Sequence record: NC_070990.1
Origin: Escherichia phage MN03
DNA length: 64,000 nt
Direction: 5' to 3' (one strand)
Part shown: piece by piece, positions 1 through 44,502 of the stretch
Layout of the letters: every line of letters starts with the position of its first letter
Position numbering within the stretch: the first letter of the stretch is position 1
Translations under genes and position numbers: made by a program
The notes under the pieces: generated by a model
Seen by the model: the letters and a program-made list of their open reading frames with translations, nothing else
Told to the model about the DNA's origin: nothing
The model's database searches: none

Positions 1-146
1 CCATCAATGCCATCTTTACCATCAATGCCATCTTTACCATCAATGCCATCTTTACCATCAATGCCATCTTTACCATCAATGCCATCTTTACCATCAATGC
101 CATCTTTACCATCAATGCCATCAATGCCATCTTTACCATCAATGCC
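1..146. repeat. Tandem 18-bp repeat array (unit atcaatgccatctttacc, about 7 copies plus partial units), running off the window start
   Basis: Directly visible periodicity of 18 nt from position 3; on the minus strand it encodes G-K-D-G-I-D hexapeptide repeats. Confidence 0.9.
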
Positions 147-338
147 ATTAGCGCCAGTGTCGCCTTTCTCTCCCTGATCACCTTTTTCACCTTTAAACCA
201 ATCTCCGATACCGCAACCATTGGCAGATTGACCTACACCACAACCTCCATTGCCATTGCCATTGTTTCCACTTTTAGCAAAAACAGGCGATGCCATTACG
301 GACAGAGCTAGGATTGAGGATAATACAATTGCTTTCAT
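1..338 (-). CDS. Secreted collagen-like (Gly-X-Y) repeat protein, N-terminal part only; gene continues past the window start
   Basis: Minus-strand ATG at 338 with AGGAA upstream; translation MKAIVLSSILALSVMASPVFA (signal-peptide-like) then GNGNGG... GEKGDQGEKGDTGANGIDGKDGID repeats with no stop to position 1; not in ORF track because truncated. Confidence 0.5.
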   Translation of the reverse strand, partial: MKAIVLSSILALSVMASPVFAKSGNNGNGNGGCGVGQSANGCGIGDWFKGEKGDQGEKGDTGANGIDGKDGIDGIDGKDGIDGKDGIDGKDGIDGKDGIDGKDGIDGKDGID

Positions 339-360
339 TTCATAGATTCCTATACAGTAG

Positions 361-390
361 ACATAAAAAAGCCCCAGCCGTAGCCGGGGC
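361..390 (-). terminator. Hairpin plus T-run (rho-independent terminator-like) on minus strand
   Basis: gccccagccgtagccggggc stem-loop flanked by a run of A on the plus strand (T-run on minus). Confidence 0.4.
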
Positions 391-449
391 AAACCTGAAA
401 GCAACACATGACCGTTGCTATAAATACACTCGCAAATGCACTTACAGCA

Positions 450-478
450 ACGCAAAAAGCCGCTCAAAGGCGGCTATG
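450..478 (-). terminator. Hairpin plus T-run downstream of the 556..999 gene
   Basis: agccgc-tcaaag-gcggct inverted repeat preceded by aaaaa on the plus strand. Confidence 0.45.
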
Positions 479-555
479 CGGAAGCTTCAAATGGGGAGAG
501 GGCACGACGCTACAGAAAGAGCGTCACAGTACTAAAAGAGGGGGCTATATTCCTA

Positions 556-999
556 CTACTTAACCCTTGCCTCTTTGATGGGGTCGATGTATTTCTCAAC
601 GCCCCACTTGTGTTTACTGTCTGCGTAGAAAACATCAGGTGCACACTGGCTTGTCTTAGGGAAAGCCTGCGGGTCTTTCGTGCTACCTTTAAACTTCTGT
701 TTACCACGGGTGCGACCATTACAGAAGATTTCTAACTTCTTCTCCTCTTCTGTTTTAGCTCCCCCGCTCTGTAACAAAGAACGTTTATGATCAGCTAACA
801 ACAACGCATCAGCCCGATGGACACGATGGCCTACACGTTTTGCCACACTTGAAGGAACATGGGATTCAGCCTCAGCCTTTGCAGCACGACGTTTTAAACT
901 ACGCTTACTGACATGATTAGTTGCCTTCGGTTTCTCTTTCTCCAGTTCAGAGATAGCAAAACAACGCCCACCCTTCATGCTGATTTTAGATTTAGCCAC
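556..999 (-). CDS. Hypothetical basic protein (147 aa)
   Basis: ORF track; Lys/Arg-rich; no recognisable motif. Confidence 0.45.
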   Translation of the reverse strand: MAKSKISMKGGRCFAISELEKEKPKATNHVSKRSLKRRAAKAEAESHVPSSVAKRVGHRVHRADALLLADHKRSLLQSGGAKTEEEKKLEIFCNGRTRGKQKFKGSTKDPQAFPKTSQCAPDVFYADSKHKWGVEKYIDPIKEARVK

Positions 1000-1068
1000 A
1001 ATCTCATTCCTTTCAGTGATAAGTTATATCGGGCAAGCCCATCAAGTCGATAGGCTTGAACAAACAAC

Positions 1069-1278
1069 TTAATCAAGTAAACTAAACGACTTCCAACTGC
1101 GTAGCAGGATTGTACCATCGTCCATAGCTACACATAATTTCAATAATCCTTTGGTGACACTACTCACTGTTGTAATTCGTCCGGTTGTACATTTACCTTT
1201 ATTGCTATAAAGATATATTACACGACGGCCTAACAAGCGGGAAGGTGATTTCTTAAATTCTGAAATGTTAGTGATCAT
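1069..1278 (-). CDS. Hypothetical protein (69 aa)
   Basis: ORF track; tight end-to-start packing with neighbours on the same strand. Confidence 0.3.
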   Translation of the reverse strand: MITNISEFKKSPSRLLGRRVIYLYSNKGKCTTGRITTVSSVTKGLLKLCVAMDDGTILLRSWKSFSLLD

Positions 1279-1499
1279 AATGCTTGATACCTTTGAATGT
1301 GTTCAATACGGGTGGATTGAGCAAATGACGCTTTAACAGCCATTTTCCTAACTTCTTCTTTACGCTGGTTAGTGTGTACAGTATCCCAATGTTTGTTATC
1401 ACGTTGGCGCTGTAATATCTTACTACATTTGCGATGGTTTCCCGTGCTGCGATGTTTCTCACAAATAGGACACTTGCCAAAATTACTACTGAATATCAT
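1275..1499 (-). CDS. Hypothetical Cys/His-rich small protein (74 aa)
   Basis: ORF track; CPIC...HRKC pattern suggests a zinc-binding element; overlaps neighbour by 4 nt. Confidence 0.4.
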   Translation of the reverse strand: MIFSSNFGKCPICEKHRSTGNHRKCSKILQRQRDNKHWDTVHTNQRKEEVRKMAVKASFAQSTRIEHIQRYQAL

Positions 1500-1723
1500 T
1501 TTCTCAATCCCAGCTTTCTTAAGATACGGCCTAACGTTGTTTCTTGCGTGATAATATAACTGATCGCTTCACGTTCCAGCGTTTCAATCTTCATTGGCGA
1601 CGGATACCATTCACCGGTAATAACACATTTACATTCAACGCCATACTTTTTAGATAGGCGGTAATGTTGACCATTGACAAGATTCCTATAAATCGTGGTA
1701 TGTGTAATTAACATGATCGTCAC
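1496..1723 (-). CDS. Hypothetical protein (75 aa)
   Basis: ORF track; 4-nt overlap with downstream gene. Confidence 0.4.
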   Translation of the reverse strand: MTIMLITHTTIYRNLVNGQHYRLSKKYGVECKCVITGEWYPSPMKIETLEREAISYIITQETTLGRILRKLGLRK

Positions 1724-1764
1724 CTTTGATTAGATTCTTTGATTAATGCACTGAATCAATGCAC

Positions 1765-1803
1765 TGATAAAAGAAAAGGCGCTACCCGTTAAGATAGCGC
1801 CTT
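1765..1803 (-). terminator. Rho-independent terminator-like hairpin downstream of the 1826..2725 gene
   Basis: aaggcgcta / tagcgcctt 9-bp inverted repeat with 10-nt loop, followed on the minus strand by tttcttttat. Confidence 0.55.
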
Positions 1804-1825
1804 ATGTTTATTCAAATTGTCTTAC

Positions 1826-2725
1826 TTATGCCGCCTGACGTGCCGCCATAATTTCAGCCGCTTTACGCAATACTTCTTCCTCTTCTGCTTTCGCCGCTTG
1901 TTCGGTACGGGTAGCAACCGTTGAAGAGATACGACCGCGCAGACTTTCTAACTTCTCCTGCATAGCTGCAACAGTCTTTTCCATTTCATCAGCGTATGAA
2001 TCGAGTGATTCTAATTCCTTGCTTGATGCGTTCATCAGATAATCATCCGAGATCGCTACCGTTGAGGCCGTGACTTTCTTGATGAGTGAATCAAAGGACT
2101 TTTTAACCTTCCCAACTTCTTCACTCAGGGCGATAGTGTTATCGCTGGTTGCGCCGTTGCGCTCATCAGCCAGTAATTTGGCTTCAATACGGATTGCATT
2201 CAAGCGTTCAACCAAAGCGTAAATATCCTGATTAAAATCTTCCTTGTTTTTCGCCGGAATTTGCAGGTGTGCCGCCACGTTGTCATTGCAACCTTTGTAG
2301 AAGTTAGGATTATCCACTTCAATTGCACGACCTAATGCAAAGTTTTCGAAAGCGTTTGACCAGCGAGCGCGGTTTTGTTCCATTTTGGCCTTAATTTGCG
2401 CTTCTTTCGCATCTTCTTTAGCTTTCGCCTCACCTTCCAGATTAATCCACTTTTTACGACCATTTGCCGCATCGGTGTTAAACTTGATAGGAGTTAAGAA
2501 AGTAATTGCGGTAGCGATAACATCCATATCACGGAAACGTTCAGTTAACAGAAAATCAACCGCCGTCTGCAATACTTCCAGCTTTTTACCGTTACTGCGG
2601 AAGTGCTGCAAGTGCCCTAACAGAAAATTAGAAACATCTTGTTTGATCGCCGCGTTATTGCTACGAATGTTGTTAGCCAGTGCATTAAAACCGGATTCGT
2701 TAACCAGAGTAAAGATTTTAGCCAT
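1826..2725 (-). CDS. Hypothetical protein (~299 aa), coiled-coil-rich C-terminus
   Basis: ORF track ORF 1826..2734; start moved to ATG at 2725, which has AAGGTGA 6-7 nt upstream; no family recognised. Confidence 0.55.
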   Translation of the reverse strand: MAKIFTLVNESGFNALANNIRSNNAAIKQDVSNFLLGHLQHFRSNGKKLEVLQTAVDFLLTERFRDMDVIATAITFLTPIKFNTDAANGRKKWINLEGEAKAKEDAKEAQIKAKMEQNRARWSNAFENFALGRAIEVDNPNFYKGCNDNVAAHLQIPAKNKEDFNQDIYALVERLNAIRIEAKLLADERNGATSDNTIALSEEVGKVKKSFDSLIKKVTASTVAISDDYLMNASSKELESLDSYADEMEKTVAAMQEKLESLRGRISSTVATRTEQAAKAEEEEVLRKAAEIMAARQAA

Positions 2726-4096
2726 GATATTCACCTTTCAATTGTAAGGGCGCTATTGCCCCGCTCTCTATGAGCTTGTTTAAGTCACTATTAACTTAAC
2801 TATAACCACTCGTTGTTAAGTAGTTATAGGTAAGCGGGGCGGTCTTATCAGGAGTTAACCTTGCCGCCCCCTTATCCGTGATGTTTCATCTGGTATCTTT
2901 AATTAGTCGCTATAAACGAAGCCGACCTGATAGCGATGATCAATCATCACAATAAGGCTATGCGTCCGACTCTATTTAATTACATTGCTGTAACCGTCGG
3001 CAATATCGTCTACTTTGTTTTCGCTCCCGCTTATCCTTTTGTATCAGCTCTCTATCGCTAGTCATCGCCCACTACGGGATACTATTGCGAAAGAGTCACT
3101 AACCGCCTAATATTCCGGCGTTTTATATCTTTCAGCAGGTTTACTACATAACCCGGCTATGTACTTTCATCCTATGATGAATCTCAAGCCGTTCACATCG
3201 TAAACGTTCGCATTAAACCTTATTGTTAAATAGCAATTTGCCACTTTTTAACCACTCCCCGCCGCTCTCAATTGAGCGTTAATTCGTCGGACTTGCCTAC
3301 CCTGATTAACTTCTTTCACTGTAGCACCGTGTTAGCAATGACCTCCGCTACCCTTAACCGTGGGCGATTAGCTCAAGTCTTTGCGTGTACTCAATGAATC
3401 CGTTTATCAATGGTGACGTTTCCAGTAAGGGAATGTAAAACTGTTTACCCTGATAATTTAGGGAGTTTTACGCCGTTTTATCTGGTATGCTTTCCGATGG
3501 TTATTATCATCAAGCATATTCAACCGATATAGGAGAATGTTTAAATTATTAAAGAGCGGTAAATCTATCAGTGTGCTTTCTCACACTATGCAACTGTTAG
3601 CCGTTGTTACGCTTTTCACTGAAGCGATGATTTGCTTAGTGAGTGCTCATTATGAATCATGTTGTTTTCGCTGTCAACCGCTTTTTAATCTTTTTTCGTC
3701 GTTCCCGCTATTGGGAGGATATATCAATCAGCTTTATTTGATTGAAGATTAAGCGGTGAGGCTTAACTTATGACTCATATTGTTAAAGAGCGTTTAGCCT
3801 TTTAAAGTGTCTGCTAATCACTGTCACATTGAAGGCTTACTGATTCATTAACAGGCCGCCTACACCTGAACTAATCGCTGCACTATGTGCCACCTTTCCC
3901 GCGATACGTTGATTTGGGAACTAGTTAGCGATGTTTTGCTAACTTGTGGTTAGTATGGACTACTTTAACCACGTTTGCAACTCTTTTTATCATCTTCTTT
4001 TAATTCCTTTCCCTTATCTCGCGTGAATCTATGCGAAAGGGCAAGATGATAAGTTTTTAAAGAGCGGGATTTTTTAAGTCATCGCTGACTATGCTC

Positions 4097-4125
4097 ACTA
4101 TATATCAGGCTTTTTCCGGTGTCAA
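4097..4125 (-). promoter_or_regulatory. Candidate sigma70-type promoter (minus strand): TTGACA, 17-nt spacer, TATAGT
   Basis: Minus-strand reading of 4125..4097 is TTGACAccggaaaaagcctgataTATAGT; perfect -35 and 5/6 -10 with canonical spacing. Confidence 0.4.
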
Positions 4126-4509
4126 TACTCTTTTTTGAGAATATTTTCACTTTCTAGCCTGATTTTTAAAGAGCGGGGCAATTTCTTGCCTTGTATGTTT
4201 TACATCGTACCCGATGAAATGAAGTATACGCTAATCAGATGAGGTTGCAATAGGGTAAAGCAAATTATTTTAAACTTTTTCACTATAGGAAGGTAAAAGA
4301 GCAGGCGCACGCGATACATCATAGAAAACGGCTTGTAAAGCGATATTTAGCGGCCTAAAACGCATCACAACGGGCTAAAAGGGAGTAAGGCATACAATCA
4401 CCTCATAAAAGAGAAAAGCCTCACTAGGAGGCTTACAGGAAGGATTAGAGAATCAGATAAATTATGACCATAGGCATGACTACGGCACAATACAGGAGAA
4501 AGATTAAGC

Positions 4510-4887
4510 CTATGGATTTACACATTGACCATTACCGGACTCAATTTCATTCATGGACTCATCAAAGAGCGTCAACGATGAGCGCATCAAGTGATCTATC
4601 GTGATTTGTTTACCGGTAGTTTCATTTACCAGCAGAATAGCTTTGTTATCTGATTGCACATGATCAAAATCATTTACATGCAAAATAATAACTTTAGGTG
4701 ACTGTTTACCAGTTTCATAGTTTTCTATCAAATAGGTGCACTGTAAACCGTCAACCGTAGCAGGGGAGAACATTGCAGCCTTAACACTACCCATAGACGA
4801 TAGGAGAACGCCCAGCAGGAGAACGACAAGGAAGAAGCCCACGAATACTTTTACTACAAATTTGATAATACCCATGATAATAATCAC
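4510..4887 (-). CDS. Hypothetical membrane-anchored or secreted protein (125 aa)
   Basis: ORF track; N-terminal hydrophobic stretch IIKFVVKVFVGFFLVVLLLGVLL. Confidence 0.4.
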   Translation of the reverse strand: MIIIMGIIKFVVKVFVGFFLVVLLLGVLLSSMGSVKAAMFSPATVDGLQCTYLIENYETGKQSPKVIILHVNDFDHVQSDNKAILLVNETTGKQITIDHLMRSSLTLFDESMNEIESGNGQCVNP

Positions 4888-4972
4888 CTATAGTTAGAGA
4901 ATATAAGAATAAAGCATATCAGCGACGAATAACGCCACTGTAACGACGAACAAGCAACGCCAAAAATAATCA

Positions 4973-5248
4973 CTATTCATCGTTGCTATTCTCGCCAAAA
5001 AATGCTACGCTAATCTGTTCCACTTCTTCCAGCGACAGGAGAATCCCGCGTTGGGCTAAATACTTCCCAACAGTTAGATAATCTTGCACTAAACAGACAA
5101 TAGGAAAGCGTATATTTTGAATCTCACCTTTGGAAAGAAAAGACAAATATCCAACGTCGATTGATTCATCAAAGGACAATGTAACGCCACCGTAATTATG
5201 CGTATCAATTAACGCAATAGTTTCATTTCCCATTGGTATCATCCCCAA
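4973..5248 (-). CDS. Hypothetical protein (91 aa)
   Basis: ORF track; overlaps upstream ORF by 26 nt. Confidence 0.3.
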   Translation of the reverse strand: MGMIPMGNETIALIDTHNYGGVTLSFDESIDVGYLSFLSKGEIQNIRFPIVCLVQDYLTVGKYLAQRGILLSLEEVEQISVAFFGENSNDE

Positions 5249-5489
5249 TCAGACCATGATTAAGCAGGTTAGCCAGCGACAAATCACCGTCAATATAGAT
5301 TGATCTGAAATCATCGCGGGTAATTTCGAAATCAGCAAAGGCTAGCCAATCTTTAAGAGGCTGATATTCCATCCTGCAAAAAGTGATAACAGGCAAGATT
5401 ATCTGACCATCAAGTGTATTAAACTCGATAGATTGCCCACCAACAAAACAAGAAAAGCCGTTTGATAACTTAACTTCTTTGATAGCCAT
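5223..5489 (-). CDS. Hypothetical protein (88 aa)
   Basis: ORF track. Confidence 0.3.
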   Translation of the reverse strand: MAIKEVKLSNGFSCFVGGQSIEFNTLDGQIILPVITFCRMEYQPLKDWLAFADFEITRDDFRSIYIDGDLSLANLLNHGLIGDDTNGK

Positions 5490-5514
5490 TTTTACACTCC
5501 TGAAAATAGGTTAT

Positions 5515-6006
5515 TTACTTACTAGCCTTAATACAGTTGGCTAAACTAACGTGAACGGTATAAACAGCGTTATTAGCGTTATTATAAACAGTTGTAGCAA
5601 TCATCGACTCATTGATCGGGCCATAACTCACCAGATTGGTTACAGCTTTAACGTCTTCGTAACGTTGTACAGTGCCAAATGTAACCATATCCGAGTCACT
5701 ATCGGTGCGCTTGAGAACTAGATCATTGTTAGGCTGATTGTCTAGTGTCTTAGACTGAAAGAGAACGCCATCATTAGTTACGTTACTAAATTTCATCTTT
5801 AGCACAATGGTAGTGCCGTCACTATCCGCACCGTTGCAAATCATCCAACCTTTGTTGATGGAACTAACGAAAACACTAGCCGCATCAGTTGCAGGAGCAG
5901 GACTAGCAACAGCCTTGTCAGAAAGAGATGTGACCAGTGCACTAACACCAATCGCTGCAACCAGTGCATAACTTGCCAGATTAACTACCTGCATTGATTT
6001 AGCCAT
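5515..6006 (-). CDS. Secreted protein with predicted signal peptide (163 aa)
   Basis: N-terminus MAKSMQVVNLASYALVAAIGVSALVTSLSDKAVA then SPAP; Sec-signal-like. Confidence 0.5.
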   Translation of the reverse strand: MAKSMQVVNLASYALVAAIGVSALVTSLSDKAVASPAPATDAASVFVSSINKGWMICNGADSDGTTIVLKMKFSNVTNDGVLFQSKTLDNQPNNDLVLKRTDSDSDMVTFGTVQRYEDVKAVTNLVSYGPINESMIATTVYNNANNAVYTVHVSLANCIKASK

Positions 6007-6871
6007 TTGTGAATCCTCGTTGATATGTATTTGGTTTCATGTTTCACAAGATAGCACGTGTTTCTGATTCACACGTAGGGCCATTGCTCAGTTGACCACT
6101 TCACTGACTCGATAGTGTTCCAGCTTTCACCAGTCAATCGCAGAGTCCTTATCTTTAAACATTCTCCACTACTTAGACTGATCAGTCTTCATGGAGCTTA
6201 CTACTATCTAGCTACTTTGCATCACTGCTTCGCTTCGATGAATACAATTTACTACTACTTAATAAGGAAAGCAAGTGCTACGGGTAAACTATTTCTACTA
6301 TCTATATAGGACGGGGAACATACAACCGCAGAGCAGACCACGGGGAAACATAGCAAGATAGTGCGGTAGTAATATACCACTTAAATAATTGTATAACTCA
6401 AACATCAAAGACGTTCGCTACGCTCACAAAGGCACGCTGAAAAAGGAAAGTAATAAAAGAATAATAACATACATCAACCATTATCCACTTAATTAATACA
6501 TATATCATTATTGCACTCATAATAACAACTATTGAAACTATTTACACTCAAACTATGGGGAGCTGTGACCATCATTAATGGCATTATTAGTATGCTAATT
6601 AGTTGGCCTGTACAGTGCTGGCCTTTCTCTCACTCTCTAAAGGGGAACTAAATAAACGGGTAGCTAATGAATAGGATGGTATACACGGGGAAAGAATAAC
6701 GGGGAGTAGGCACGGGGAAAGGTGGAACGTTGAAAGGGAAGGTAAAGGCATTGCCAATAACCCTTTTTTAAATGAGGACTCCCCCTTTTTAGGAAACGCG
6801 CGGCGAGCGGCTAGCCCCATTCGGTCAAATCAGAATTTTAAACTCTTATATATAAGGTTGAAAGAGAACTT

Positions 6872-7036
6872 ATGTGGAAAATTAAGTTAATCATTAAGCA
6901 ATTCAAATGTGATCATGAGTACTATCGGATACGCAAAGCTTACGGGGATGAAAGAGTTCACACCCTTTATAAGTCCACTTGGAGATGTAGTAAATGTGGT
7001 AAGCTTAAACACAGCACATGGATGGACAGACCTTAA
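6872..7036 (+). CDS. Small putative zinc-ribbon protein (54 aa)
   Basis: ATG at 6872, stop at 7034-7036; MWKIKLIIKQFKCDHEYY...WRCSKCGKLKH; below ORF-track size cut-off. Confidence 0.3.
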   Translation: MWKIKLIIKQFKCDHEYYRIRKAYGDERVHTLYKSTWRCSKCGKLKHSTWMDRP

Positions 7037-7270
7037 CGTGACATGGCCTTAACATGAGGGTGCCTTAACATGAAGTAGTCATCAAAGATGACGTCCCCTT
7101 TATGTCTTAACTTTATCAGAGGGATGTATGACAGAAGATGAATACGGTAGCTTCTCTGAAGAAGACTACGAAAATGAATACAGGTATTCTCACGGGTGTT
7201 AATGTGAGGTGGCCTTTACGGGTATGTCTTATGATGTGCCCTTTATACTCTTATTCAGAGGAGAAGAATT

Positions 7271-7525
7271 ATGAATTTAGTACTAGACTTTTTATCAGAG
7301 ATGGTGCCTCGGTTCAGAACGGAGACATACGCTTTCGTGGTCAACAGTGACTCTGAAGAAGGGATGGAAGCTACTTGCTTAGGCCGTCTTGTTGATTTAG
7401 ATGATGAAACAGATTTCGATATTACAATTGATGTGAGTAGCTTAGGTTGGCTCTTCTTCAGAGCATTCCGCACTTACAGAAAAGAAACATACAAAGATTA
7501 CAGCAAGGGAGAGACAGATGAATAA
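7271..7525 (+). CDS. Hypothetical acidic protein (84 aa)
   Basis: ORF track; GAGGAG Shine-Dalgarno 8 nt upstream. Confidence 0.45.
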   Translation: MNLVLDFLSEMVPRFRTETYAFVVNSDSEEGMEATCLGRLVDLDDETDFDITIDVSSLGWLFFRAFRTYRKETYKDYSKGETDE

Positions 7526-8150
7526 TTTAATCAAAGCGATGGACCTTAACGAGTATAATTCACAGCTGTGTCGTTCTGGTTGTAGCTTACAGCATTTAGA
7601 AACTATGGGAAATGTCTCAGGACTGGCTGTACAAGATTTATATAGTGGAAGTATTCTTAAACCAACTATTACGGAGAAGAAAGATATGATGAGTTTAGTA
7701 GAACAATACCGTGGACTTCAAGTCGGTACTATTGGTGATAAATATGAGAACTACTACAAAGATCGCTCAAAAGTACTTGAAGAAGTTGCACGGGCTAAGC
7801 CTTCTACTCTGGAGGTAGTTGAATATGAATCTACTAAACATGAACACCTCCCTGACTATGCTCGTGCAATGATTGAGATGATTGAAGAAGCTGAATACGA
7901 AATGCTCCATGATTACATTACCTCCAAAGATGAATGGCATCGTGATGTTCGAATCGAAGAGGATGGTACAGAAACAATTACGTGGATTCACAAGAGTGAG
8001 CTAGTAGACGACGCACTGCGAGACTACGAAAAATTTTTGGTCGACGGCTCTATTCTTTTAGAGGAAGAGAAGGGTGCAGAACTTCCGTGGGAAGGTGAGA
8101 CGATTGCTCTAGGTAAGATGTTTAACCTGTCCGTTGGTGATTGTAAGTAA
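7518..8150 (+). CDS. Hypothetical protein (210 aa)
   Basis: ORF track; AAGGGAGAG upstream; 8-nt overlap with preceding gene. Confidence 0.5.
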   Translation: MNNLIKAMDLNEYNSQLCRSGCSLQHLETMGNVSGLAVQDLYSGSILKPTITEKKDMMSLVEQYRGLQVGTIGDKYENYYKDRSKVLEEVARAKPSTLEVVEYESTKHEHLPDYARAMIEMIEEAEYEMLHDYITSKDEWHRDVRIEEDGTETITWIHKSELVDDALRDYEKFLVDGSILLEEEKGAELPWEGETIALGKMFNLSVGDCK

Positions 8151-8841: not shown

Positions 8842-10383
8842 ATGTCATTAGATAAACAAATTTATGAAGCTCTAACTGGTAACAATCTTAGTGTAGACGA
8901 AAAGAAAGCACTATTGAATATGTTGAAAGAGCGTGACCAATGGAGGAAGTATAATAGGATTTTGTCTTTCAAGGCGTATGACTTCCAAAAGAAATTTTAT
9001 GCAGCAGGATTGAAGCATCGCTTTAGATTCTTGTGTGCAGCGAACCGTGTTGGTAAATCTTACAGTGAGGCATACGAGTTTGCTTGTCATGTCACAGGTC
9101 GCTACCCAACTTGGTGGACAGGATATAAATTTAAAAGACCTATCTTAGCATGGGCAGTTGGTATTACAGGGGATTCCACAAGGAAAGTATTGCAAAAGGA
9201 ATTGTTTGGTACACCTATCGGAAAGGATACAAATTTATTGGGGACAGGTGTCATTCCTCGTGATGCTATCGTCATTGACACGATAGAACGAGATGGTAAC
9301 AAACTTCAAATCGTACAAATCAAACATCAAAACGAAAGAGGAGAGTTTGACGGTTTAAGTACATTAGAATTCCGTTCAACCCAACAGGGTGAACACACAT
9401 TGATGGGTGCAACAGTTGACTACATTTGGTTAGACGAAGAAGATCCATACGAGTCTATGGCTATATTCGCACAGTGCGTCACACGTACACTCACAACTAA
9501 AGGTCTAGTTACAATTACAGCTACACCAGAGAACGGTTTAACTGAACTGGTAGATAAATTTATGAAAGGTGAAGGGGATGAGAACACAGGTTCTCTATAT
9601 TTCCAGAATGCTTCTTGGTGGGATGCTCATGCAGACCTAGGTGGACATATCACTGACCAAGATATAAAAGATATGACTGAAGGTATTCCAGCGTGGCAGT
9701 TAGAGATGCGTTCGAAAGGTATGCCATTGTTAGGAAGTGGTTTGATTTATGATGTATCGGATGACACAATTAAATGTGAACCATTCGAAATTCCTGATAC
9801 GTGGAAACGTGTCTGTGCAATTGATATTGGTATTGATCACCCAACTGCTGCTGTTTGGACAGCTTACGATGCAAACACGGATACTATCTATGTTTACGAC
9901 TCATATAAAGAAGGTGGCTTTACTCCAGTGTATCATGCTCCAGCTATTAATGGTCGTGGTCAGTGGATTCCTGTCATCCTACCGCACGATGCGGACAATA
10001 TTGAGAAAGGTAGTGGCTCATCTGTTGCTCAATTCTATAAGAATGCAGGAGTTAACGTACAGAGTGAGACCTTCTACAACAAAATTGGAATGGATGGTAA
10101 AAAGAACTTCTTTGTAGAACCGGGAATCACAGATATCCGAGAAAGAATGATGAGTGGACGCTTTAAAATCTTTAACACAGCCGCTAATGCTAAGCTATTC
10201 GAAGAGAAAGCTAGATATCACCGTAAGGTTGGTAAGATTATTAAAGAACATGATGACTTAATGGATGCAATGCGCTATTCAGCGTGCTCTGTTACACATC
10301 GTGGTCGCTCTAAGCATGACGTTAGCTACGGAAGTGCTTCTCTGTATGAGGCAAACGTAAGCAGATGGAATCAGAGTTACTAA
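8842..10383 (+). CDS. Terminase large subunit (513 aa)
   Basis: Walker A-like CAANRVGKS, Walker B-like IWLDEED, size and position before portal; GGAGG SD. Confidence 0.85.
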   Translation: MSLDKQIYEALTGNNLSVDEKKALLNMLKERDQWRKYNRILSFKAYDFQKKFYAAGLKHRFRFLCAANRVGKSYSEAYEFACHVTGRYPTWWTGYKFKRPILAWAVGITGDSTRKVLQKELFGTPIGKDTNLLGTGVIPRDAIVIDTIERDGNKLQIVQIKHQNERGEFDGLSTLEFRSTQQGEHTLMGATVDYIWLDEEDPYESMAIFAQCVTRTLTTKGLVTITATPENGLTELVDKFMKGEGDENTGSLYFQNASWWDAHADLGGHITDQDIKDMTEGIPAWQLEMRSKGMPLLGSGLIYDVSDDTIKCEPFEIPDTWKRVCAIDIGIDHPTAAVWTAYDANTDTIYVYDSYKEGGFTPVYHAPAINGRGQWIPVILPHDADNIEKGSGSSVAQFYKNAGVNVQSETFYNKIGMDGKKNFFVEPGITDIRERMMSGRFKIFNTAANAKLFEEKARYHRKVGKIIKEHDDLMDAMRYSACSVTHRGRSKHDVSYGSASLYEANVSRWNQSY

Positions 10384-21387: not shown

Positions 21388-21606
21388 ATGAAAATGATGA
21401 AACAAGCTGCATATGGTTTAATATGTTTAGGCGCAGGTGTTGTGGTATCCACCGCAGTTCCTGTAGGCGCAGTTCATCCATTAGTAACTGTCCCTGCTCC
21501 AGTAGAGAAGCTTAGCTCTCAATGCAAGCAGAGAACAATTCAAAATAACTTAGTTGTTATTTGCCCTGATGCTGAATCTAACGCTCTGAGAAAGATACTA
21601 CCTTAA
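21388..21606 (+). CDS. Small membrane protein (72 aa), possible holin-like or lysis-associated
   Basis: N-terminal MKMMKQ plus hydrophobic AAYGLICLGAGVVVSTAV; immediately upstream of the lysozyme gene. Confidence 0.4.
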   Translation: MKMMKQAAYGLICLGAGVVVSTAVPVGAVHPLVTVPAPVEKLSSQCKQRTIQNNLVVICPDAESNALRKILP

Positions 21607-44167: not shown

Positions 44168-44329
44168 TTATTCCTCATATTCCCAATTTCTTTCATAATA
44201 TCCAGAGTTATAGTTTAGGGCGCACTTCTCGGCCTCTTCTATATCGTCAGTGTTTAGGATATTTACCCATCCTCCAACTTCATCAAAACCTTCTTCTACT
44301 TCGTTAAACCATACACTATACTTTTTCAT
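44168..44329 (-). CDS. Hypothetical protein (~53 aa)
   Basis: ORF track ORF 44168..44362 trimmed to internal ATG that forms an ATGA overlap with the upstream small ORF. Confidence 0.35.
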   Translation of the reverse strand: MKKYSVWFNEVEEGFDEVGGWVNILNTDDIEEAEKCALNYNSGYYERNWEYEE

Positions 44330-44502
44330 CGAGAAGTTCTTCCCCAATCTTTTACATAGCATCGACCGTTAACCCACTTTGTCTCTGACTTAAATTCCTG
44401 AGACAATCTCACTTCACAGTCTTCTCTACTAGCATCTCCTCCAATATCAATCAGATATAAGAATAGAGCTATACCTAAAGCCCAAAGAATTATCTTCTTC
44501 AT
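44326..44502 (-). CDS. Small membrane/secreted protein (58 aa), not in ORF track
   Basis: MKKIILWALGIALFLYLIDIGG...; ATGA overlap with the upstream gene stop at 44499-44502. Confidence 0.35.
   Translation of the reverse strand: MKKIILWALGIALFLYLIDIGGDASREDCEVRLSQEFKSETKWVNGRCYVKDWGRTSR

Follow-up and report, generated by a model that had tools for sequence, protein, structure and literature searches.

A self-contained early gene unit, bounded by a terminator, lies at positions 4407 to 6006 on the minus strand at the right physical end of the genome of Escherichia phage MN03 (sequence record NC_070990.1), and its products are very probably targeted to the envelope of the host cell. The whole stretch of DNA analyzed, 64,000 nucleotides (nt), is referred to here as the window; early timing of the unit in this phage is something that we infer. 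Read on the minus strand from 6006 to 4445, the gene order is A, a gene for an 88-amino-acid (aa) protein, a gene for an 86-aa protein, micro-protein 1, B, and micro-protein 2, followed by the terminator. A, micro-protein 1, and B are kept together across Kuravirus and Suseptimavirus, and the genes between them change.

Leaders and predicted export

Proteins A and B, together with the product of a collagen-like gene at positions 1 to 338, each have a positively charged n-region, a hydrophobic core, small residues at positions −3 and −1, and no proline at +1. The cleavage-type sites are AVA↓S in A, VKA↓A in B, and VFA↓K in the collagen protein, and orthologues from diverged lineages also follow the small-x-small pattern (VQA↓K, SHA↓A, SYA↓A, and AIA↓D). 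There is no lipobox (L-[AS]-[GA]-C) in any of the three and no cysteine at or near the leader end. In a crude scan of about 90 gene-like open reading frames (ORFs) in the window, export-type leaders are present in 3 of the 11 genes within the terminal 6.8 kb and in 2 of about 80 elsewhere (Fisher P = 0.012). Leader swapping, which we take to be evidence independent of this enrichment, points the same way: the mature domains of A and B have swapped leaders in relatives, with three unrelated leaders in each family at or next to one site, and the finding that these domains carry unrelated textbook signal peptides argues strongly for export. Each mature domain also has exactly two invariant cysteines, one in the first beta-strand and the other in the C-terminal strand or tail, as would be expected if a disulfide formed in the periplasm held each barrel closed. 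Taken from the leader features, export of A and B followed by signal peptidase I cleavage is probable.

Gene A (5515 to 6006, minus strand) codes for a 163-aa protein, the short form of the phi32_128 family, from an ATG with a GAGGA Shine-Dalgarno sequence about 8 nt upstream, and no in-frame extension is possible upstream of this ATG. The protein is composed of a leader of residues 1 to 34 and a domain of about 125 aa in which C57 and C158 are invariant. The leader (5905 to 6006, minus strand) reads MAKSMQ, then VVNLASYALVAAIGVSALVTSL, then SDKAVA↓S; its core LASYALVAAIGVSALVTSL (also given as LASYALVAAIGVSALV) is moderately hydrophobic, and A-V-A↓S is at residues 32 to 34. At 34 aa the leader is long relative to the typical ~18 to 30, and its marginal hydrophobicity is typical of cleavable signal peptides. 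In a simple additive Hessa-scale estimate, the best 19-mer of A gives +1.3 kcal/mol and the autotransporter signal peptide +1.8, and on this estimate the A segment appears to score like an ordinary signal peptide, unlike a stable transmembrane helix. The A orthologues in SU7 and locus L004 have VQA↓K, keeping the small residues at −3 and −1, and in protein P0100 the A domain is behind an unrelated textbook leader, MNKANFVIGALVLTFGSMAIA↓D.

A long form of A (287 to 291 aa), in which an in-frame fusion puts an N-terminal domain of ~128 aa before the hydrophobic segment, is present in about 44 phage records, including that of phiEco32, and the short form in about 30. The long form has a lysine-rich flank, KKNKKQPIKP, on the N-terminal and thus cytoplasmic side of the segment by the positive-inside rule, and a small-x-small site is still present after the segment. 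The N-terminal domain (120 to 128 aa) is a separate family, phrog_15368, which exists as a gene of its own in Klebsiella Webervirus-like siphoviruses and phAPEC8-like myoviruses, among others. Homologues of A are located at 7202 to 8074 of locus L001, 9445 to 10317 of L006, 2855 to 3730 of L002, and 2765 to 3628 of L004. A preliminary description of this DNA had attributed a clear signal peptide to 5515 to 6006; the ORF is real and the leader is present, but in the ~44 long-form records the segment is internal, behind the 128-aa domain.

Gene B (minus strand; 121 aa, phi32_125 family) had been delimited as 4510 to 4887 and described as coding for a signal-anchor. Both the ORF and its hydrophobic leader are real, but the gene likely starts at ATG 4875 rather than at GTG 4887, because there is an AGGTGA Shine-Dalgarno sequence for the former and the PHROG profile and all homologues begin there, and the anchor label is doubtful. 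B (4510 to 4875) has a very hydrophobic leader of 33 residues, also long by the usual range, ending in V-K-A↓A (MGIIKFVVK, then FVGFFLVVLLLGVLL, then SSMGSVKA↓A), and an 88-aa domain in which C46 and C118 are invariant. The segment scores −2.75 kcal/mol on the same additive scale, as hydrophobic as a true anchor. The B orthologues of L004 and SU7 have the textbook leader MKIKLAVCAALFAVSSVSYA↓A in place of the hydrophobic one, and an in-frame deletion in L002 has made the N-terminal 19 residues of micro-protein 1 the leader of B, such that the mature domain is joined to three unrelated leaders at a V-x-A↓A junction. A cleaved precursor therefore seems more likely than a permanent signal-anchor, given that the cleavage-type site is conserved and that orthologues carry ordinary signal peptides.

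We note that other parts of the window also contain short ORFs with hydrophobic segments. A 72-aa ORF (21388 to 21606, plus strand) and a 58-aa ORF (44326 to 44502, minus strand) have signal-peptide-like N termini, and two tandem similar ORFs of 59 and 61 aa (52759 to 52944 and 52954 to 53133, minus strand) have two hydrophobic segments each and are perhaps holin-like.

Predicted folds and database labels

AlphaFold2 predicts that A and B each consist of a short helix followed by an 8-stranded antiparallel up-and-down beta-barrel, with a mean predicted local distance difference test score (pLDDT) of 85.6 for the B model and about 80 for the barrel region of the A model. We considered A and B as paralogues and rejected this relationship (hhalign probability, 0.1%); only the fold class is common to both. 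The two families are under purifying selection, with ratios of nonsynonymous to synonymous substitution (dN/dS) of 0.07 to 0.19, and are confined to phiEco32-like phage contigs, in 71 and 28 clusters, respectively, at 60 to 99% identity. An exhaustive profile search with A returned seven representatives, five of them genuine; P0102 and P0103 were discarded as spurious matches to repeat proteins.

A PDB sequence search with the A and B family profiles returned nothing, NCBIfam has nothing for the four operon proteins, and the BFVD fold matches are only to uncharacterized phage proteins. Searches of Pfam, PHROGs, NCBIfam, PDB, and folds give no link of A or B to a known exclusion or envelope-modifying protein, and no homology by sequence or specific fold was found to Imm, Sp, Sim, SieA/B, gp15, Llp, Cor, or Ltp. 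Database entries label B as a terminase and the 88-aa protein as a polymerase, but neither protein has any Pfam or NCBIfam match, including to a terminase or polymerase domain; these labels are wrong and are artifacts of the names of phrog_13168 and phrog_14176.

The right genome end and transcription of the unit

From its sequence matches, we assign the window to a phiEco32-like podovirus (Kuravirus, Gordonclarkvirinae). There are 97 phage records matching positions 3500 to 7500 at 80 to 99% identity, and by tblastn a relative's protein matches phiEco32 (NC_010324; Kuravirus, Gordonclarkvirinae) at 96%; an N4/G7C-like virus was considered as the phage type and dropped, with the tblastn match being to phiEco32 and the taxonomy Kuravirus. 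Blocks shared with phiEco32 at the right end are 86 to 95% identical, and other stretches are replaced. The molecular biology of the Gordonclarkvirinae is poorly studied, the early biology of Kuravirus phages almost unstudied, and the receptors are the O-antigen and the lipopolysaccharide (LPS) core (PMC11990801).

The two ends of the phiEco32 genome are identical to each other at 193 of 193 positions, and blastn with both ends locates this direct terminal repeat of 193 bp in the window as a single collapsed copy at 6621 to 6812. The phiEco32 right end (L006, 10543 to 11055) aligns with window positions 6311 to 6812 and the left end (L007, 2 to 953) with 6621 to 7526. Both ends thus map to one copy, and we conclude that the window derives from a circularly collapsed assembly, with the physical right end placed by this alignment near 6812 and the left end near 6621; 1 to 6812 is therefore the right genome end with its leftward early genes. 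The large terminase (8842 to 10383) is on the left-end side, from 6621 onward. In phiEco32 and SU10 the leftward genes of the right end form the early class and are transcribed by the host sigma-70 RNA polymerase (PMC4281155, PMC8948821). Both points of the preliminary description, the leftward early-type region and its place near a genome end, are therefore borne out.

The unit ends at an intrinsic terminator (4407 to 4434, minus strand) found by scanning, consisting of a hairpin at 4416 to 4434, AAGCCTC-CTAGT-GAGGCTT, followed by the T-run TTCTCTTTT. A terminator at the equivalent position was placed by the authors of the SU10 study (PMC4281155) and is also annotated in the record of SU7, a member of another genus, in which a promoter-to-terminator unit of this kind is annotated by its authors. 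The arrangement in SU10 and phiEco32 is one promoter upstream of the end gene, a terminator after the fourth gene (the B homologue), and three further promoters in the long spacer behind the terminator (PMC4281155). Our scan of the window also gives three near-consensus sigma-70 promoters on the minus strand outside the operon, TTGACA-17-TATAGT at 4223 to 4250, TTGACA-17-CATAAT at 4097 to 4125, and TTGCAA-16-TATACT at 3649 to 3677, and these start the next, main early transcription unit.

Neither strand of the spacer itself (2735 to 4406, ~1.7 kb) holds a credible ORF, and phiEco32 and Bas90 have no annotation there either. The spacer contains four direct copies of TTTTTAAAGAGCGG (CCGCTCTTTAA on the minus strand) at 3542, 3776, 4050, and 4159, and an inverted copy of the same repeat at 2755 to 2770. 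The copies lie downstream of the promoters and so could be a leader-RNA element, for example in antitermination. Elsewhere near the genome ends, the terminal-repeat region has short direct repeats, GTAxxCACGGGGAAAG, at 6679 and 6706, and a 210-aa protein at 7518 to 8150 has a propagated ABC transporter label without domain support. No Rfam families and no tRNAs were found across the whole window.

Micro-proteins and middle genes

Two conserved hydrophobic micro-proteins that gene callers miss are added to the unit by this analysis. The comparative tests cover about eight distinct relatives, and a scan of IMG/VR for further loci gave only four. Micro-protein 1 (28 aa, MNSDYFWRCLFVVTVALFVADMLYSYIL; 4894 to 4980, minus strand) has an ATG that shares nucleotides with the stop codon of the gene ahead of it. 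The micro-protein is kept in phiEco32, NJ01, KBNP1711, and locus L010, with a diverged form still recognizable in L004 and SU7 as MVIHKYFLHCLIAFCIMLF.YDM..., and the ratio of nonsynonymous to synonymous polymorphism (pN/pS) is 0.14 in its own frame versus 0.75 to 0.89 in the other two. It is either unannotated or annotated in the wrong frame, as is the case for this stretch in Bas90.

Micro-protein 2 (26 aa, MCKSIGLIFLLYCAVVMPMVIIYLIL; 4445 to 4525, minus strand) shares the final 16 nt of B, stops immediately ahead of the terminator, and is present in seven of the eight distinct relatives examined. Its pN/pS is 0.12 in frame versus 0.89 to 1.65 in the others, and the insertion estimate for its best 19-mer is −2.5 kcal/mol. 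The gene has no clear Shine-Dalgarno sequence, so that translation is inferred, and it is without annotation in the records looked at.

Neither of the middle proteins has a hydrophobic segment. The 88-aa protein (5223 to 5489, minus strand; phi32_127 family, phrog_14176) has a maximum 15-residue Kyte-Doolittle window of 1.22. The 86-aa protein (4973 to 5233, minus strand; phi32_126 family) belongs to phrog_16976, which covers residues 6 to 91 of a TTG-started ORF, and its slot is variable, with relatives holding other genes there.

A collagen-like gene at the window edge

The third protein with an export-type leader is coded by a gene of the phi32_119 family of which the window, cut at its edge, holds the N-terminal 112 codons (1 to 338, minus strand). 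The predicted signal peptide, which the preliminary description had also recognized, withstands inspection: its 21 residues, a typical length, read MKAIVLSSILALSVMASPVFA↓KSG (MK followed by AIVLSSILALSVMA), and behind it are a short cysteine-containing head and a collagen GXY stalk with at least eight GIDGKD units. The number of GIDGKD copies differs among relatives, with two in phiEco32, eight in Bas90, and at least eight in the window. At about 95% identity, the DNA in common with phiEco32 takes in the start of this gene; gp119 of that phage matches Pfam Collagen, as does the full-length Bas90 protein, and also PF03895 YadA_anchor over 1 to 60 of 60 positions (E = 4.5e-19; 68.7 bits against a cutoff of 22.7 bits); the Bas90 relative matches YadA/BimA C termini in NCBIfam. 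Both relatives have a coiled-coil neck, the YadA_anchor, and a C terminus of ...GAGVSYEW with an aromatic last residue. We thus read the gene as the start of a trimeric-autotransporter-like outer-membrane protein whose anchor, beyond the window edge, is seen in near-identical relatives only. The tail protein label on this family is wrong, because full-length relatives end in a YadA_anchor domain.

The gene is an accessory insertion that is lacking in SU10, and a copy at ≥95% identity is present in 13 records only; homologues are at 3219 to 3899 of L006 and 1051 to 1839 of L001. YadA-type anchors occur in 108 phage records in all, mostly of virulent phages, and distant ones are found in N4-like Salmonella phages, jumbo phages, T4-like phages, and the known prophage protein EibD. 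We found no study of autotransporters in virulent phages in the literature, and these records flag a group of YadA-anchored proteins in many virulent phages that is apparently unstudied. Upstream of the gene are two strong terminator-like hairpins (371 to 390 and 458 to 475, minus strand), with no recognizable promoter between them and the ATG at 338.

Possible roles of the unit

We propose that the unit serves to deliver phage proteins to the envelope of the host shortly after infection. A and B would be exported via Sec, each probably being cut by signal peptidase I, and would fold in the periplasm into small, disulfide-stapled 8-stranded up-and-down beta-barrels; the micro-proteins, 26 to 28 residues long and encoded on either side of B, would become embedded in the inner membrane. 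The barrels in the periplasm and the peptides in the membrane may then bind components of the host envelope or the ejection machinery of an incoming phage, such that superinfection, or wasteful adsorption to or ejection into an already infected cell, would be prevented. By analogy with known systems, such an entry-blocking or superinfection-exclusion function is the single most likely role, although we hold it tentatively and it falls well short of being probable. A broader proposal is rather unlikely as a whole: that virulent Gordonclarkvirinae carry an unrecognized immediate-early envelope module of two barrel proteins from families without characterized relatives and two transmembrane micro-proteins, constituting a new entry-blocking or envelope-guarding type, which in some members, MN03 among them, is joined by a surface-displayed collagen-stalk autotransporter.

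Several observations weigh against this picture of the unit. The canonical phiEco32/SU10 promoter, TTGACAGCC...TATAGT, is absent from the window with up to three mismatches allowed, and our own scan finds no sigma-70 match of at least 9 of 12 positions within 470 nt of A. The canonical early promoter is missing because the ~200 nt between the terminal repeat and A (roughly 6040 to 6240) are replaced relative to phiEco32 and Bas90, as is also the case in NJ01. The barrel fold of A is obtained in only one of five AlphaFold2 models, with a mean pLDDT of 68.4 versus 39 to 45 for the other four. Finally, the hydrophobic segment of A is near-invariant, a degree of conservation unusual for a plain signal peptide, and the 290-aa form has it in an internal position, so that its function may extend beyond targeting.

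A possibility almost as likely as exclusion is that the unit is a periplasmic module for host takeover or protection that has nothing to do with other phages. Candidate host targets of the calycin-like barrels would be lipids or LPS intermediates, hydrolases of peptidoglycan, proteases or nucleases, and the periplasmic portion of an envelope-based sensor of defense or stress; binding could either keep the infected envelope intact or silence a response, and the micro-proteins could modulate an inner-membrane protein in the manner of bacterial MgrB or AcrZ.

There is a slim chance that the unit instead acts like the T4 RI antiholin, setting the time of lysis or sensing the envelope. The A segment, which is only marginally hydrophobic at +1.3 kcal/mol, with about half of its residues small or polar, and nearly invariant in sequence, would then be a signal-anchor-release domain, and A a membrane-tethered or releasable periplasmic sensor; the layout of the 290-aa form, a cytoplasmic domain, a transmembrane segment, and a periplasmic domain, would couple the two compartments. 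However, the release mechanism is unworkable for that long form, neither RI nor any family of holins or antiholins resembles A, the operon, an early unit, is placed at the far end of the genome and not near the lysis genes, and the small-x-small sites conserved after the segment in diverged lineages favor cleavage. It is least plausible, and highly improbable, that the products are not exported at all, being cytoplasmic or membrane embedded and facing inward, or that the PHROG and GenBank labels of terminase, polymerase, and tail protein are right, since the 121-aa and 88-aa proteins have no such Pfam or NCBIfam domain, the real large terminase is elsewhere, the collagen protein has a signal peptide and, in its near-identical relatives, a YadA outer-membrane anchor with no virion-attachment domain, and leader swapping, the positive-inside arrangement, and the invariant cysteine pairs are hard to explain otherwise.

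The envelope unit, with exclusion as its leading candidate role, offers a concrete and easily tested lead on the way in which these phages deal with superinfection, the envelope, or host defenses. Kuravirus phages are common therapy candidates against E. coli, and E. coli K-12 in which the O-antigen has been restored now supports growth of Bas90-type relatives. Our search of the literature on phiEco32-like phages found nothing on these genes, on exclusion, or on their signal peptides, and to our knowledge there is no known exclusion phenotype for any Gordonclarkvirinae phage.

Comparison with known systems

In virulent and temperate phages alike, known exclusion proteins tend to be small, to be expressed early or constitutively, and to be periplasmic, lipoproteins, or located in the inner membrane; T4 Imm and Sp, P1 Sim, HK97 gp15, and T5 Llp act as entry blocks. 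T4 Imm and Sp (spackle), P1 Sim, and HK97 gp15 resemble the genes described here in being small and early or constitutive, in having a hydrophobic leader at the N terminus that targets them to the inner membrane or periplasm, and in being accessory and poorly conserved outside their own phage group. These proteins act on DNA entry of the incoming phage, and Sim is a processed periplasmic protein. In contrast, A and B have no sequence or fold similarity to them that we could find, and here a single operon codes for a pair of micro-proteins as well as two predicted exported beta-barrels.

T5 Llp and T1/phi80 Cor are likewise early, exported, small, and disulfide containing or beta rich, and by blocking receptors they guard both the infected cell and the progeny against renewed adsorption or ejection. 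They are lipoproteins with a lipobox, whereas A, B, and the collagen protein have no L-x-x-C at the leader end, and the Kuravirus receptors are the O-antigen and LPS core rather than a protein channel (PMC11990801).

With the calycin-type barrels (lipocalins such as bacterial Blc, nitrobindin, avidins, and the Cap15 barrel), A and B have only the general fold class in common; identities are 3 to 13%, no family-specific match stands out, and the best matches are designed proteins. The near-identical relatives of the 1 to 338 gene share with trimeric autotransporter adhesins, such as YadA and the prophage-encoded Eib proteins of E. coli, a signal peptide, a trimer-forming stalk, a coiled-coil neck, and a C-terminal YadA_anchor, and EibD (P-EibD) gives a weak tblastn match to this family; the passenger differs in that nearly all of it is a collagen GXY helix, the head being very small, and in being coded by a virulent phage. 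Set against these systems, the unit is an uncharacterized variant of a familiar theme, that of small early phage proteins sent to the envelope.

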